A stretch of 4,555 nt of DNA, from IMG/VR virus record IMGVR_UViG_2529292828_000006, positions 1 to 4,555 of that record; one strand, 5' to 3'. This document shows, in pieces, positions 1 to 4,555 of this stretch (position 1 is the first letter of the stretch; each line of letters opens with the position of its first letter). The notes under the pieces are model-generated. The model did no database searches, was not told the DNA's origin, and saw only the letters and a program-made list of their open reading frames with translations. The position numbers and the translations under genes were made by a program. This stretch comes from a virus. Taxonomy: Duplodnaviria > Heunggongvirae > Uroviricota > Caudoviricetes.

Positions 1-1
1 G

Positions 2-400
2 ACGTTTGTTATGGATAACCGGAGCAATATTTTTCCACAACCGGCAGATGTGGAACGCGTGGCGGATTATATCGCCGGTCATACTGACCCGATAACCGGC
101 CTGATTGTCGGACAGCCTGATGGTGTAAATGTCACGGTATTTGCACCAAAGGCAAAGCCGGTAAATCCACGGATTTATATATCGCCGAAGACAGCCGAAC
201 TGAAACAGGCTATTACTCACGCCATTAATACCATGTTTTTTAATGAGGTGACGCCGGGCGGTGCACTTGCCCCCTCCCGTATTATCCGTGCGGTGGCAGG
301 TGTTACCGGTCTGGATGATTTTGAAGTGCGTTTCCCGACAGAGATCCAGCGTTCGGAGAATACGGAACTGTTAACACCGGGGACAATTGAATGGCTGTAA
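2..400 (+). CDS. phage baseplate J-like protein, C-terminal portion (5' end lies outside the window)
   Basis: Frame is open from the first base of the window to TAA at 398-400, so the ATG at 11 is probably internal. Its stop overlaps the ATG of the next gene (391), suggesting translational coupling. Assignment rests on synteny (gene immediately upstream of a DUF2313 tail gene and the tail fibre, as in Mu gp47/gp48 and P2 J/I), not on a recognised motif. Confidence 0.5.
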   Translation, partial: TFVMDNRSNIFPQPADVERVADYIAGHTDPITGLIVGQPDGVNVTVFAPKAKPVNPRIYISPKTAELKQAITHAINTMFFNEVTPGGALAPSRIIRAVAGVTGLDDFEVRFPTEIQRSENTELLTPGTIEWL

Positions 401-933
401 CACCCTGGCAGACGGCCTTTCTGCAATTACTGCCGTCAGGGCTTGCCTGGAATAAAAGCCCCGACAGCAAATTATCTGCGCTGGCGCAGGCCATCAGCGA
501 CGTGATTACCACTGCGGCGGATGATGCGCGGCAAATGCTGCGGGAGCGTTTCCCGTCCACATCCCGCTGGTATCTGGGTGAGTGGGAATCATTTCTGGGG
601 TTGCCGGACTGTACCAGCGAAAACGGCACCCTGTCCGAACGCCGGCGGGCTGCCGCGAATAAAATGCGTATGACCGGCAATCTGAGTCGGCGCTTTTATG
701 AATGGCTGGCTGCGCAGTACGGTTTTACCGTCAGGCTGACGGATTCCACAGAAGGCCAGTGGGTTACGCAGGTCAATATTTACGGTATTAAAAATTATCG
801 CAACGCAACGGTGCTGGATAATGTTCTGACGCCGTTACGTGTTTATGAATCGGGTGCGCTGGAATGTTTACTGGAGAAATATAAACCCGCGCATCAGATT
901 TATAAATTTGTTTACCATGACGGAGATAACTAA
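391..933 (+). CDS. phage tail/baseplate protein, DUF2313 family (Mu gp48 / P2 gpI / e14 YmfQ-like)
   Basis: 180-aa ORF with ATG at 391 preceded by GGGGA at ~379-383. N-terminus MAVTPWQTAFLQLLPSGLAWNK... resembles e14 YmfQ / Mu gp48-type proteins as I recall them. Stop TAA 931-933 overlaps the ATG of the next gene by 1 nt. Confidence 0.7.
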   Translation: MAVTPWQTAFLQLLPSGLAWNKSPDSKLSALAQAISDVITTAADDARQMLRERFPSTSRWYLGEWESFLGLPDCTSENGTLSERRRAAANKMRMTGNLSRRFYEWLAAQYGFTVRLTDSTEGQWVTQVNIYGIKNYRNATVLDNVLTPLRVYESGALECLLEKYKPAHQIYKFVYHDGDN

Positions 934-1361
934 TGTTTTATATTGATAACGACAGCGGCGTAACCGTCATGCCGCCCGTATCCGCCCAGCGTAGTGCTAT
1001 CGTTCGCTGGTTTTCAGAAGGTGACGGGAATAATGCTATCACATGGCCCGGCATGGACTGGTTTAATATTGTGCAGGCGGAGTTATTAAACACGCTGAAA
1101 GAAGCCGGTATTCAACCGGATAAAACAAAATTAAACCAGCTTGCACTGTCCATTAAAGCCATTATGAGCAATAACGCGCTGCTGATAAAAAATAACCTCA
1201 GCGAAATTAAAATTGCCGGGGCATCAGCACAGCGTACAGCACGTGAAAATCTGGATATCTGGGATGCCAGCCTGAACAAAAAAGGCCTCGTTCAGCTAAC
1301 CAGTGCCACTGACAGCCCCAGTGAAACGCTGGCAGCCACCGCAAAATCGGTGATTTGTTGA
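933..1361 (+). CDS. tail fibre protein, N-terminal constant part (142 aa; reading frame ends prematurely, probable pseudogene fragment)
   Basis: ATG at 933 with GGAG at 922-925. C-terminal stretch KKGLVQLTSATDSPSETLAATAKSV matches the conserved N-terminal motif of P2 H / Mu S-type tail fibres. ORF ends at TGA 1359-1361, about 80 bp before the crossover site, instead of reading through it into a variable domain. Confidence 0.7.
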   Translation: MFYIDNDSGVTVMPPVSAQRSAIVRWFSEGDGNNAITWPGMDWFNIVQAELLNTLKEAGIQPDKTKLNQLALSIKAIMSNNALLIKNNLSEIKIAGASAQRTARENLDIWDASLNKKGLVQLTSATDSPSETLAATAKSVIC

Positions 1362-1439
1362 TACCCTTACATAGCCAATCAGCACTCTGGATCTCCCGTT
1401 TAAAAGCGCAAATCATGCCATGCAGGCCGGAAACAGCCA

Positions 1440-1473
1440 TTATCTAAAACCTCGGTTTACAGGAAACGGTAAA
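1440..1473. repeat. left crossover site (gix/pix-like 26-bp core site within a 34-bp inverted repeat) of the invertible segment
   Basis: 1440-1465 TTATCTAAAACCTCGGTTTACAGGAA has the 12-2-12 architecture of Gin/Hin/Pin/Cin sites and matches the Mu gix sequence as I recall it (TTATCCAAAACCTCGGTTTACAGGAA) at 25/26 positions. 1446-1473 is a perfect reverse complement of 4528-4555. Confidence 0.8.
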
Positions 1474-2410
1474 TCAGGCTTCTGGCGCATTGCAGAAAAA
1501 CCAGAACGGTGCAGATATTCCGGGAAAAGATACCTTCACCCAAAATATTGGTGCCTGCCGCGCATATAGCGCATGGGTGGATATTGGTGGCGATAGCCAG
1601 GTCTGGACAACTGCGCAATTTATTTCGTGGCTGGAGAGTCAGGGGGCATTTAACCATCCTTACTGGATGTGCAAAGGCTCATGGGCTTATGCAAATAATA
1701 AGGTCATTACAGATACAGGTTGCGGAAATATTTGTCTTGCAGGTGCTGTTGTGGAAGTTATTGGCACTTGTGGCGCAATGACCATACGCATTACCACACC
1801 GAGTACATCCAGCGGTGAAGGCATCCCTAATGCTCAATTTACTTATATAAACCACGGTGGAGATTATGCTCCTGGCTGGCGACGAGACTACAACACGAAA
1901 AATCAGCAGCCTGCATTTGCTTTAGGGCAAACAGGAAGCACTGTCGGAAATGATAAAGCTGTTGGCTGGAACTGGAATAGCGGGGTCTATAACGCAAACA
2001 TTGCTGGTGCATCGACATTAATCCTCCACTTTAATATGAATGCGGGGAGTTGCCCTGCTGTACAGTTCCGCGTGAATTATAAGAACGGCGGTATTTATTA
2101 TCGTTCAGCGCGTGATGGTTATGGATTTGAGGCTGACTGGTCTGAGTTTTACACCACAACCCGCAAACCCTCGGCGGGAGATGTTGGTGCATACACGCAG
2201 GCAGAATGTAACTCAAGGTTTATTACAGGTATTCGCCTTGGCGGTCTGTCATCTGTTCAGACATGGAATGGCCCCGGCTGGTCTGACAGGTCAGGTTATG
2301 TCGTTACGGGTTCAGTTAATGGGAACCGTGATGAATTAATTGATATAACACAGGCAAGGCCAATTCAGTATTGCATTAATGGAACGTGGTATAACGCGGG
2401 GAGTATTTAA
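1448..2410 (+). CDS. tail fibre C-terminal variable (receptor-binding) domain, cassette in the currently expressed orientation (Mu Sv-like); no convincing independent start
   Basis: Frame is open from 1448, directly after the TAA at 1445-1447, to TAA 2408-2410. The ORF track starts it at TTG 1490, which has no Shine-Dalgarno. It begins NLGLQETVN, encoded by the crossover site, exactly as the opposite cassette does. C-terminus ends ...RPIQYCINGTWYNAGSI, a tail-fibre tip motif. Confidence 0.75.
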   Translation, partial: NLGLQETVNQASGALQKNQNGADIPGKDTFTQNIGACRAYSAWVDIGGDSQVWTTAQFISWLESQGAFNHPYWMCKGSWAYANNKVITDTGCGNICLAGAVVEVIGTCGAMTIRITTPSTSSGEGIPNAQFTYINHGGDYAPGWRRDYNTKNQQPAFALGQTGSTVGNDKAVGWNWNSGVYNANIAGASTLILHFNMNAGSCPAVQFRVNYKNGGIYYRSARDGYGFEADWSEFYTTTRKPSAGDVGAYTQAECNSRFITGIRLGGLSSVQTWNGPGWSDRSGYVVTGSVNGNRDELIDITQARPIQYCINGTWYNAGSI

Positions 2411-2412
2411 TT

Positions 2413-2946
2413 ATGATGCACTTAAAAAATATTACTGCTGGCAACCCTAAAACAAAAGAGCAATACCAGCTAACAAAGCAATTTAACATCAAATGGCTTT
2501 ATACAGAGGATGGGAAAAACTGGTATGAGGAACAAAAGAACTTTCAGCCTGATACGTTGAAAATGGTCTATGACCACAACGACGTTATTATTTGTATTGA
2601 AAAGGATGTTTCAGCAATTAATCCAGAAGGCGCAAGCGTCGTTGAGGTTCCTGATATTACAGCAAATCGCCGGGCTGATATTTCGGGTAAATGGATGTTC
2701 AAAGATGGCGTAGTGATAAAGCGAACTTATACCGAGGAGGAACAGAGGCAGCAGGCAGAGAATGAAAAGCAAAGCCTGTTGCAACTTGTCAGGGATAAAA
2801 CCCAGCTATGGGACTCACAGCTACGGCTGGGTATCATTTCCAACGAGAATAAACAAAAATTAACCGAGTGGATGCTCTATGCGCAGAATGTCGAATCCAC
2901 AGACATCTCCAGCCTGCCAGTAACGTTTCCAGAACAACCAGAATGA
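2413..2946 (+). CDS. tail fibre assembly chaperone (Tfa / Mu U family)
   Basis: 177-aa ORF MMHLKNITAGNPKTKEQYQLTK...[13 protein letters not shown]...[14 protein letters not shown]...SGKWMFKDG, recognisable as Mu U / Tfa-type. ATG at 2413 lies 2 nt after the fibre stop, with GGGGAG at 2397-2402. Sits immediately downstream of its fibre tip, as expected. Confidence 0.85.
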   Translation: MMHLKNITAGNPKTKEQYQLTKQFNIKWLYTEDGKNWYEEQKNFQPDTLKMVYDHNDVIICIEKDVSAINPEGASVVEVPDITANRRADISGKWMFKDGVVIKRTYTEEEQRQQAENEKQSLLQLVRDKTQLWDSQLRLGIISNENKQKLTEWMLYAQNVESTDISSLPVTFPEQPE

Positions 2947-2949
2947 AAC

Positions 2950-2979
2950 AAGGCCCGCTATCGGGCCTTAATTTTTATT
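2950..2979. terminator. hairpin terminator between the convergent tfa genes (probably bidirectional)
   Basis: AAGGCCCG (2950-2957), loop CTAT, CGGGCCTT (2962-2969): an 8-bp GC-rich stem followed by AATTTTTATT on the + strand. The minus strand has a weaker U-rich run (TGTTTCATTC) after the same stem. Confidence 0.5.
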
Positions 2980-3502
2980 CAGGCTTTTGTGGCCATTCAG
3001 GATTTGCCGTATCCACACGGCTGACCAGAACACTGTAGCGTTCCCATGCTTCCAGTCGTGTGCGTTCCTCGTCTGTTGCCATATTCATCCTGACAGCGCG
3101 TTCCAGCTGCTGGATGACTGATTCAGCTTCGGAAAGCAATGCGGCCTTTTGTGATTCGGCTTGTTGTTGCTGTTCGTCTGCCGTATAAATCCGTTTAACT
3201 ACAGCTCCATCCTTAAACATCCACTTTCCTGAATCATCAGCGCGGCGGTTGGCTGTTATATCGGGAACCTCAACGACGCTAAAACCTTCAGGGTTAAGTG
3301 TGGAGGCATCTTTAGTGATGGCGACAATAATATTATTTGCATCGTAAACAATCTTTATTGTGTCTGGCTGAAAGTTTTTCACTTCCTCATACCAGTTTTT
3401 TCCGTCCTCAGTGTAAAGCCAGATAACTCCGTGTTTCTTTGTTAACTCATACTGTTCCAGTGTTTTAGCGTTACCCGCTTTTATGTTCTTTAAGTGCATC
3501 AT
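2975..3502 (-). CDS. tail fibre assembly chaperone, paralogous copy (Mu U' / e14 TfaE-like)
   Basis: 175-aa [51 protein letters not shown]...[25 protein letters not shown]-terminal two-thirds are highly similar to the + strand Tfa; the C-terminal third diverges. ATG at 3500-3502 is 1 nt from the stop (3504-3506) of the upstream fibre domain. Confidence 0.85.
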
Positions 3503-3503
3503 A

Positions 3504-4553
3504 TTAAACGCTCGCTACATTATACCAGGTGCCATTTATATACTTTTGAACGGGTCTGTAATAAACGCCCGCTATATTATCGGCAGAGTTGGACCCTGTA
3601 TCCTGAACATTAATACCAGACAATACATGACCTGAAGGGCACTGGAAATTCCATGTTTGCCAGTTGTTCACTCCATAATATTGCTGTGAACCAAGTCGAA
3701 CATCGTGCACGCCGATTTGTCTGAGGTAAGATGATAACCATCCTCCCCATGCAGTACCATTAATGTCACCATTCGATGCCAAAGTCGCTCCACCGGCAAT
3801 TACCGGACCTGGCGAGAAAAATGATTTGTCGTTCGGGTTAAACTGCCATAAGGCTCCATTGCCGTTATCGCCACACACATGAATACATGGTACCGGGAAT
3901 CCCTGCTGTTCAGTCAGCAAATAACCAAAGCTGACCGCGCCGGGATAGCCCTGTCCATTGCGAATGGACAAGCCCTTAACTATCGGCACGTAATGACCAC
4001 CAGGAGTGGGATTCCAGGCAAACTGCGTCTGAACAAAAGGCGCGGTGGCATTATTTAACTGGTCTGCAAATGCGCCACTTCCATCAGGAATTATTCCCTG
4101 ATGAATATATGCAACCCGCTTATAAAAATCAGCAGATGCGGGTTGAAGCCCAAATGCCAGTTGTCCATTTGAATAGAATAAAAGGACACCGTCGCCGCCC
4201 TGTTTAATACCAGTGTCGTTATCTCCGAGAGTAATGGAATTACCGCCCAGTGCGTTATCTGTACCAAGCGCCAGCCCACCATCAATTTTGGCCCCGTGGC
4301 TGACAGATATAGCACCTGTTCTCAGATTTATAGCGAATGGCCTTAATGGGCCGATATCACCGTTTTCGCCTTGTCCTTCAGCCGTCGGAATGAAATGAAG
4401 AAAATCTTCTGAACGACGGAAAATAAGACCGAAGGCATCATTGAAAATTCGCAGCGCATTCATCGTGCCAATTTTCAGTTCTCCGGTCATTTTATCGCCG
4501 GAACGCTGAACGGCGTTACCAGCCCTGTTTACCGTTTCCTGTAAACCGAGGTT
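3504..4553 (-). CDS. alternative tail fibre C-terminal variable (receptor-binding) domain, silent-orientation cassette (Mu S'v / P2 H-like tip); 5' end runs into the right crossover site and the window edge
   Basis: Minus-strand frame is open from the window end to TAA at 3504-3506. The first ATG is at 4490 (ORF-track start) but has no Shine-Dalgarno. Translation from the window edge reads [16 protein letters not shown]...; downstream [26 protein letters not shown]... and the end ...[19 protein letters not shown] resemble the P2 H / Mu S tip domain as I recall it. Confidence 0.8.
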
Positions 4554-4555
4554 TT
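4528..4555. repeat. right crossover site (inverted copy), truncated by the window end
   Basis: 4536-4555 TTCCTGTAAACCGAGGTTTT is the reverse complement of the left site; the final 6 bp (expected NGATAA) fall beyond the window. The perfect inverted match to 1446-1473 covers 28 bp. Confidence 0.75.

Follow-up and report, generated by a model that had tools for sequence, protein, structure and literature searches.

A draft contig of an SfMu/Mu-like Escherichia coli prophage ends within the probable right crossover site of its G segment

The window, that is the whole 4,555-bp stretch of DNA analyzed here, ends in what is probably the right-hand boundary of a phage-Mu-type G segment: as the best explanation taken as a package, positions 4528–4555 are the inner 28 nt of its right 34-bp inverted repeat. 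The segment belongs to an SfMu/Mu-like prophage of E. coli 2780750, and comparison with near-identical prophages suggests with good probability that an intact gin invertase gene would lie beyond position 4555. Beside the left crossover site the window carries an inverted start of gin that stands where the end of the constant tail fiber part is expected. The explanation we favor for this junction, with about an even chance, is that two contig ends were wrongly fused end to end during assembly.

Results

Gene content and right end of the contig

The window comprises contig AQDV01000015.1 of assembly GCA_000355555.2 from end to end. It contains the Mu-like prophage markers Baseplate_J and Phage_Mu_Gp48 (Pfam), and the relative L010 (near-identical loci are numbered with the prefix L) contributes Zn_ribbon_Com and Mom. 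The 3′ end of the baseplate J gene is colinear with gp47 of L007 and L011, and the gene of fiber end B is 100% identical to that of L010, L011 and L012, its reading frame remaining open across the right repeat as far as the contig extends (Table 1). Across window and relatives we found the Mu late-gene order gp44–gp48, S, U, followed by a right end with gin, com and mom, together with variable insertion sites, the Mu-like relatives being inserted at differing E. coli chromosomal loci. In the annotated Mu record the matching repeat is directly followed by the G-segment boundary, a ribosome-binding site and gin, then by com and mom.

Table 1 Features of the 4,555-bp window.
Position	Strand	Feature	Basis
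1–400	+	Mu gp47-type baseplate J gene, 3′ end; the contig begins inside the gene	Pfam Baseplate_J, E 2e-14
391–933	+	Mu gp48-type baseplate wedge gene	Pfam Phage_Mu_Gp48, E 4e-28
933–1353	+	Constant N-terminal part of tail fiber gene S (Sc), shortened	Pfam Phage_fiber_2
1337–1352	+	Short hairpin just upstream of the junction; CACCGCAAAAGCGGTG in relatives, 6-bp stem	
1354–1385	-	First 32 nt of gin; GTG start at 1385–1383, codons 1–11 VLIGYVRVSTN, including the codon of the catalytic Ser9	
1386–1439	-	54-nt gin leader from crossover site to gin start, with GGGAG ribosome-binding site	
1440–1465	.	Complete left gix site, TTATCTAAAACC-TC-GGTTTACAGGAA; outer half of the gin-side type, TTATCT	
1446–1473	.	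Left arm of the perfect 28-nt inverted repeat	Repeat finding
1490–2410	+	Variable tail fiber C-terminus A, counterpart of Mu S′	ORF; Pfam gp37_C; alignment to Mu S′
2413–2946	+	Tail fiber assembly chaperone, counterpart of Mu U′	Pfam Caudo_TAP, E 2e-35
2975–3502	-	Tail fiber assembly chaperone in opposite orientation, counterpart of Mu U	Pfam Caudo_TAP, E 1e-36
3504–4555	-	Variable tail fiber C-terminus B, in the position of the variable part of Mu S	Called gene
4528–4555	.	Right inverted-repeat arm, 28 of 34 nt, up to the contig end	Repeat finding
4536–4555	.	Right gix site, first 20 of 26 bp, TTCCTGTAAACC-GA-GGTTTT	

The window contains exactly two copies of the sequence TTCCTGTAAACCGAGGTTTT, one at 4536–4555 on the plus strand and the other at 1446–1465 on the minus strand. 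The chance expectation is 0, and none of 200 shuffled sequences contained even one match. Both copies are part of an inverted repeat that is perfect over the 28 nt lying within the window (1446–1473 and 4528–4555), and the repeat finder returned longer arms of 50 nt, 1446–1495 and 4506–4555, which are 80% complementary and enclose this perfect part. At the right end the crossover site is represented by 20 of its 26 bp and the Mu-type inverted repeat by 28 of its 34 bp, and the 28 visible nucleotides show no difference from the phage Mu repeat beside gin. The left and right sites are identical over their shared part, including the core dinucleotide TC/GA, and the last 6 bp of the right site lie outside the contig. 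The window therefore has two inverted crossover sites, each composed of two 12-bp half-sites of imperfect symmetry with an identical 2-bp core between them, as a DNA invertase switch requires.

An earlier note on this DNA had proposed that the window ends inside the right crossover site of a Gin/Cin/Pin-type tail fiber switch, with only 20 of 26 bp present. Each part of this proposal stands. Positions 4536–4555 cover the initial 20 bp of a 26-bp gix site and match Mu exactly, the left site is complete at 1440–1465 while the right copy shows exactly 20 bp, and the right site is identified by its exact inverted copy at the left site together with the identity to Mu. The right site is cut short because the draft contig itself stops there. 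Contigs commonly break at the inverted repeat of the G segment. The Mu U-type chaperone encoded at 2975–3502 is found as an identical protein on at least 24 public contigs.

Relatives carry gin, com and mom beyond the site and hold the G segment in both orientations

Near-identical loci were fetched using the exact 175-aa chaperone sequence and then aligned to the window by BLAST. Over window 1475–4555 L010 shows 100% identity, and L011 and L012 are 100% identical from 1613 and 1720, respectively, to 4555 and 99.9% identical over 1–1353. L014 shares 99.97% identity over 1349–4526, L006 and L007 share 99.0% over the whole window, and the G segments of L009 and L008 are 98.2% and 97.7% identical to that of the window.

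In five of these loci (L006, L007, L008, L009 and L010) fiber end B lies beside gin, and here the site is completed as ...GGTTTTAGATAA (AGATAA). Beyond AGATAA the five loci continue with a 54-nt leader, TGGCTG...GGGAGATCCAGA, followed by GTG-CTGATTGGC...; an intact gin start in 2780750, 54 nt past the completed site, would read GTGCTGATTGGC.... The gin ORF encodes 197 aa with a Resolvase (E 5e-50) and an HTH_7 (E 2e-17) domain and is followed by com (Zn_ribbon_Com) and mom. All relatives that reach the gin side have such a 197-aa Resolvase and HTH_7 gene 54 nt past the site. In L005, L011 and L012 the same inner half-site is completed as GGATAA, after which comes the reverse complement of the Sc end. 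The completion predicted beforehand, GGTTTTNGATAA, fits that of the five relatives and indeed agrees with both natural states (AGATAA and GGATAA). The serine-recombinase ORF with a helix-turn-helix that had been expected past the site is the 197-aa gene of the relatives.

The arrangement of the fiber ends points to a segment that flips. Fiber end A adjoins Sc in L001, L006, L007 and L009 and adjoins gin in L013 and L014, and fiber end B adjoins Sc in L005, L011 and L012. G segments with 97.7–100% identity are thus present in both orientations relative to Sc and gin among L005–L014, which describes the lineage and not strain 2780750. In 23 index blocks this U′ chaperone is found solely on contigs of 2–5 kb, a length matching that of the G segment. 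The switch appears to be active in this phage lineage. Because the G segment flips, an invertase next to the right site is only one of two natural states. Judged by its closest relatives, the genome of 2780750 would most likely read AGATAA past the site, followed by the 54-nt leader, intact gin, com and mom.

As an accessory gene further downstream, the earlier note had named one that is mom- or mcrA-like. The former is present in the relatives; mcrA is not expected, the context being Mu-like (gp47, gp48, com, mom). A different invertible system past the site, either e14 Pin (pin and mcrA) or P1 Cin (cin), is very improbable. The crossover sites of the Gin, Pin and Cin systems are related, and the variable fiber and chaperone genes share 88–94% identity with the C segments of P1, P7 and D6, which would fit such a system. 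However, Mu gp47 and gp48 are the flanking genes, colinearity with SfMu (93.8%) and with Mu-like prophages extends over the whole window, and every close relative has gin-com-mom and then host genes at varying places, as a transposable phage does.

A candidate enhancer lies past the gin fragment of the window

As established for Mu Gin, P1 Cin and Salmonella Hin, the serine invertase, here Gin, binds two inverted gix sites as dimers, and an enhancer occupied by Fis in the 5′ part of gin activates them. Gin cuts the central dinucleotide (TC/GA) and rotates, inverting a segment of ~3.1 kb. The inversion joins the constant 5′ part of S to one of two 3′ parts, each with its own chaperone, and thereby changes the host range.

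For G inversion the Fis sites are situated in the coding region of gin, ~550 bp upstream of where mom starts (PMC3378877). The Hin system has its enhancer inside hin, at a native distance of 99 bp from hixL (PMC3798978). In the relatives of the window the center of the site lies 67 nt from the gin start, and the 15-mer GACCAGAATACAGAC at gin nt 34–48 is a candidate Fis site, as it fits the description of the Fis core with G...C ends and Y-R steps at ±3–4 (PMC4784862). The putative enhancer would then lie just past the 32–37 nt of gin present in the window. This agrees with the earlier statement that the enhancer is unseen: Fis sites belong to the gin coding region, and the candidate 15-mer lies past the gin fragment of the window.

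A stray gin start adjoins the left crossover site

The invertase, too, had been described as unseen, which is correct for most of gin but not for its beginning. On the minus strand, beside the left site, the window contains an exact copy of the leader and of gin nt 1–32; the rest of the gene is absent. Read from 1385 to 1354, the fragment is GTG CTG ATT GGC TAT GTA AGG GTA TCA ACA AA, encoding VLIGYVRVSTN. Similarity to gin reaches position 1349, which corresponds to gin nt 37, with one mismatch, and these 32 nt (37 with the mismatch) are all that the window holds of an invertase. The leader at 1386–1439 matches the gin leader of nine relatives exactly. Taken together, window 1354–1473 (120 nt) reproduces, inverted and without a mismatch, the site, the leader and gin nt 1–32 of nine relatives, and window 1349–1480 shares 97.7% identity with the reverse-complemented repeat, leader and first 37 nt of gin in L001. 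We looked for a sigma-70 consensus promoter at 1300–1600 around the gin leader and found none.

This inverted block from the flank of gin replaces the last 75 nt of Sc. Homology to intact Sc stops at 1353, and the ORF meets a TGA at 1359–1361, resulting in a product of 142 aa. At the junction all relatives read ...GCAAAAGCGGTGAAAATTGCGATGG... and the window reads ...GCAAAATCGGTGATTTGTTGATACC...; Sc of the relatives runs on as ...GGTGAAAATTGCG..., and in a normal S copy Sc would read ...GCGGTGAAAATTGCGATGG.... The outer half of the left site is also affected: its gin-side form TTATCT sets a TAA in the S frame, and the Sc-side half TTATCC encodes Gln. In the relatives S comprises 488 or 517 aa; an in-frame read-through of Sc across the site into the variable fiber part was not found in the window, and its failure may be an assembly artifact.

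At the exchange point the parental sequences share only GGTGA versus GGTCA, that is 4 of 5 bases. T1347, 6 nt from the junction, is peculiar to the window; all 11 loci compared have G. It falls in the 3′ arm of the short hairpin upstream of the junction and weakens the stem, with a DNA fold of -4.1 kcal/mol in the window compared with -7.4 kcal/mol in the parental form. A GGC motif at 1331–1333 precedes the hairpin. The replacement tract measures 86 nt and the displaced tract 75 nt, and both start at the outer edge of the repeat. The left end of the window does not represent the internal deletion seen in L006, the junction of that deletion lying 114 nt further left.

Outside this contig the junction was not encountered. 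A 151-nt query spanning it gave no match covering at least 80% in 5,426 complete E. coli genomes, and no exact match was obtained in the GTDB representative genomes or in IMG/VR. The 142-aa product of 933–1361 (EMW50847.1) is a single record by exact look-up, from this contig, and the 247-aa fiber fragment likewise occurs on this contig alone. A normal Sc-to-repeat contig of 2780750, sought via the 167-aa partial Sc (17 contigs, all of at least 10 kb), was not among the matches listed.

A false contig join is the preferred explanation of the junction

How a false join might have come about is conjecture. In a culture with mixed G orientation, contig ends could have been wrongly joined during assembly, a G-segment contig that overran into the flank of gin being butted onto the Sc contig. 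Such a butt join is plausible because the true distance of the Sc contig to the repeat (75 nt) is close to the overhang (86 nt). It would leave gin in its normal place.

Other draft assemblies lend support to this explanation on both sides of the junction. The Sc side lies within 3 nt of the last base of the draft contig L015 (APYK01000087.1), from the E. coli P0299917 series of a similar accession era. This contig ends ...GCAAAAGCGG at the equivalent of window 1350, whereas another contig from that assembly, 1,055 bp long, overlaps the end and continues normally. As for the gin side, N-terminally cut Gin fragments in other drafts start at codons 10, 12 and 14. Window 1349–4555 is colinear with L014, a normal prophage in the flipped state, and in all searches the junction and the 142-aa product were confined to this contig. 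T1347 and error-trigger motifs close to the junction also favor a false join; a GGC motif and a hairpin are two known triggers of Illumina sequence-specific errors (PMC3141275). On the other hand, the overlap of 4 of 5 bases (GGTGA versus GGTCA) is one at which most assemblers would refuse to join, and the contig crosses the junction unbroken, arguing that there was no strong competing path in the data. The tract lengths of 86 and 75 nt fit a template switch in vivo equally well.

That the junction is real and the switch damaged, by either a template switch or a reciprocal inversion, is rather doubtful. The first of these, an in-vivo template switch or palindrome extension, is our second choice and on its own unlikely. 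A nascent strand would copy one 34-bp repeat, pair with the other, copy 86 nt of the gin-side flank and return to its own template at the 4-of-5-nt microhomology just past the Sc hairpin. The outcome would be a 120-nt perfect inverted repeat and a dead S, with gin, the enhancer and both gix sites intact past the window. Such an event would account for a copied tract that begins precisely at the repeat and reproduces the gin-side flank without a mismatch, for the similar lengths of copied (86 nt) and displaced (75 nt) DNA, and for the GGTGA/GGTCA microhomology at a return point that abuts a hairpin of -7.4 kcal/mol. A repeat of 120 nt, being longer than reads of 100 nt, could also explain the contig break at the right copy, although the contig passes the left copy of the supposed repeat unbroken. 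The distance of 3 kb between the repeat arms is large for an event of this kind, T1347 is left without explanation, and the structure occurs a single time among the public sequences searched. The coincidence with contig ends in other assemblies favors an artifact. If a template switch did take place, the gix-bearing repeats would have guided the copying of the gin flank over the end of the tail fiber gene.

An intact gin past the right site is probable because both the false join and the template switch leave gin in place. A reciprocal inversion with breakpoints in Sc after 1353 and at gin codon 12 would change this, and we consider it improbable. It would flip a block composed of Sc end, repeat, G segment, repeat, leader and gin nt 1–33. 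Past 4555 it predicts GGATAA, 75 nt of reverse-complemented Sc and a gin that lacks promoter, start codon and Ser9, with the reverse-complemented Sc end fused to gin codon 12 as ...CATCGCAATTTTGACCAGAAT... and a right flank reading GGATAAACAGCGG...CGCAATTTTGACCAGAAT. The split would detach promoter, start codon and Ser9 from the rest of gin, right beside the first putative Fis site, and the G segment would stay frozen as long as no other invertase acted in trans. Seen from the left, the junction looks exactly like one end of an inversion, the left site bears the gin-side outer half TTATCT, and the contig crosses this site unbroken, as expected if G no longer flips. Yet two independent breakpoints would have to fall 75 and 86 nt from the repeats by chance, and a 34-bp repeat gives no cause for the contig to break at 4555. 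The reciprocal junction (...CATCGCAATTTTGACCAGAATAC...) was not found in the GTDB representative genomes or in IMG/VR. The predicted 214-aa fusion ORF, in three variants, was absent from a collection of 15 billion proteins that holds the proteins of this contig, a weak negative result as it depends on gene calling and contig ends.

We also considered Gin itself as the maker of the exchange, acting at quasi-sites. Both parental sequences were scored against natural half-sites in all registers from -4 to +2 nt of the exchange point. The parental breakpoints scored 5–11 of 24 against a background of 7.6 ± 2.0; the best half-site at the exchange point reached 7 of 12, and only one did so, while a score of 8 of 12 occurred in a register unfit for exchange. 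This candidate was rejected: the breakpoints are unlike gix in any register, so that even a reciprocal inversion would not have been made by Gin.

If the junction were true, it would be a small natural case of inversion repeats promoting the rearrangement of their own flanks. The truncation of S and the stray gin start are not to be taken as biology before the reads or the neighboring contigs are checked.

Comparison with known invertible systems

Among the closest known systems is the G segment of phage Mu, with gixL and gixR, the Gin invertase whose gene contains the Fis enhancer, and then com-mom. The 28 repeat bases and the central dinucleotide are identical, the order gp47, gp48, Sc, site, S′/U′ and U/S, site is the same, and the gin fragment of the window encodes the same VLIGYVRVSTN as Mu gin. 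Identity to Mu amounts to 98.2% over window 1–1353 and 92.3% over 1349–3551. In contrast, fiber end B (~3710–4490) shows no DNA-level similarity to that of Mu, the outer half-site on the gin side is TTATCT in the window whereas Mu has TTATCC on both sides, and in the contig gin nt 1–32 and the leader stand in for the last 75 nt of Sc.

The best overall matches are SfMu (93.8%) and the SfMu-like E. coli prophages (FDAARGOS_1059, L005–L014). The SfMu-like prophages encode a Gin of 197 aa followed by com and mom, but none has the Sc/gin junction or T1347.

Cin of P1 and P7, Pin of e14 and Hin of Salmonella operate the same kind of serine-invertase switch. The fiber and chaperone genes of P1 and P7 are 90–94% identical to window ~1485–3548. 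The flanking genomes differ, P1 and P7 being plasmid prophages and e14 a lambdoid remnant with mcrA, while Hin controls flagellin. According to Iida and Arber, recombination of DNA invertases at quasi-sites (cixQ-type) could reportedly give inversions that end inside the invertase gene. The junction of the window differs from this case, as neither breakpoint is gix-like above background.

Near-identical prophages with the complete site, gin, com and mom are already public, and as a textbook switch the locus is of little significance in itself. The lesson is rather that the window is a whole draft contig that ends in a repeat, as often happens. The system it belongs to is the already known Mu G/Gin host-range switch in an SfMu-like prophage.

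Inverted gin fragment and truncation of the tail-fibre gene

Beside the left gix crossover site the window carries, on the minus strand, an exact inverted copy of the gin-side half-site together with the 54-nt leader and the start of the invertase gene (gin nt 1-32 to 1-37). This block displaces the last 75 nt of Sc, the constant part of the tail-fibre gene S, and because it replaces the end of Sc, the S product is cut to 142 aa in the window.

Coordinates of the features in the window and in related loci
Feature	Window	Related locus
T (Ser) in place of G (Ala)	1347	
Inverted gin-side block	1349-1473 (-)	
End of 26-kb contig	1350	L015 10418
Stop codon of S	1359-1361	
Outer half-site, gin side (TTATCT)	1440-1451	
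Outer half-site, Sc side (TTATCC)		L011 4942-4953
Variable fibre end B	3710-4490	
G segment between two invertase genes		L008 4294-8705 (GCA_044025295.1)
Internal deletion		L006 ~9605 (ENA metagenome ERZ19637012)

Six nucleotides from the junction between Sc and the inverted block, the window has a T where 11 of 11 loci compared have G. This base falls on the 3' arm of a hairpin, CACCGCAAAAGCGGTG, and has a GGC motif upstream; it could be a contig-end error, a sequence-specific error or a mutation tied to the rearrangement. Contigs appear prone to break at the equivalent of window 1350. In the P0299917 series of E. coli assemblies (L015, L017), the last base of a 26-kb contig lies 3 nt off the window's junction, and a shorter contig of 1,055 bp from that assembly overlaps it by 722 nt with 0 mismatches and continues normally past its end. 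Base 1 of the window lies in the middle of the baseplate J gene gp47, through which the relatives continue straight, and no repeat or junction is visible at this position; the contig start there could reflect a gap in coverage, or the presence of an IS element or of a second related prophage.

Variable fibre end B and the relatives L008 and L006

Coverage by matches to the window falls off beyond ~3710. Fibre end B, one of the two alternative 3' parts of the fibre gene, has no Pfam match, and neither Mu nor most complete E. coli genomes contain a sequence that matches it closely. It is nevertheless 100% conserved in three relative loci (L010-L012), so it seems to represent a receptor-binding variant of its own.

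In L008, invertase genes flank the G segment on both sides: on the left stands a Mu-type gin-com-mom order, on the right the gene for an invertase of 195 aa precedes P2-like genes for gpU, the tape measure and gpE, and the constant fibre part is absent from both sides. The arrangement suggests that two prophages underwent a gix-by-gix exchange, or else that the locus is misassembled. In L006, a Mu-like prophage, a large internal deletion brings the 3' third of gp47 next to a DUF2730/lysozyme/Mor region and removes the head genes and most tail genes.

Outer half-sites

The outer half-sites of the gin and Sc sides differ in the window's lineage. Read in the S frame, the gin-side TTATCT would give an in-frame TAA, and therefore only the Sc-side TTATCC is compatible with fibre expression. 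Mu, in contrast, has TTATCC on both sides.
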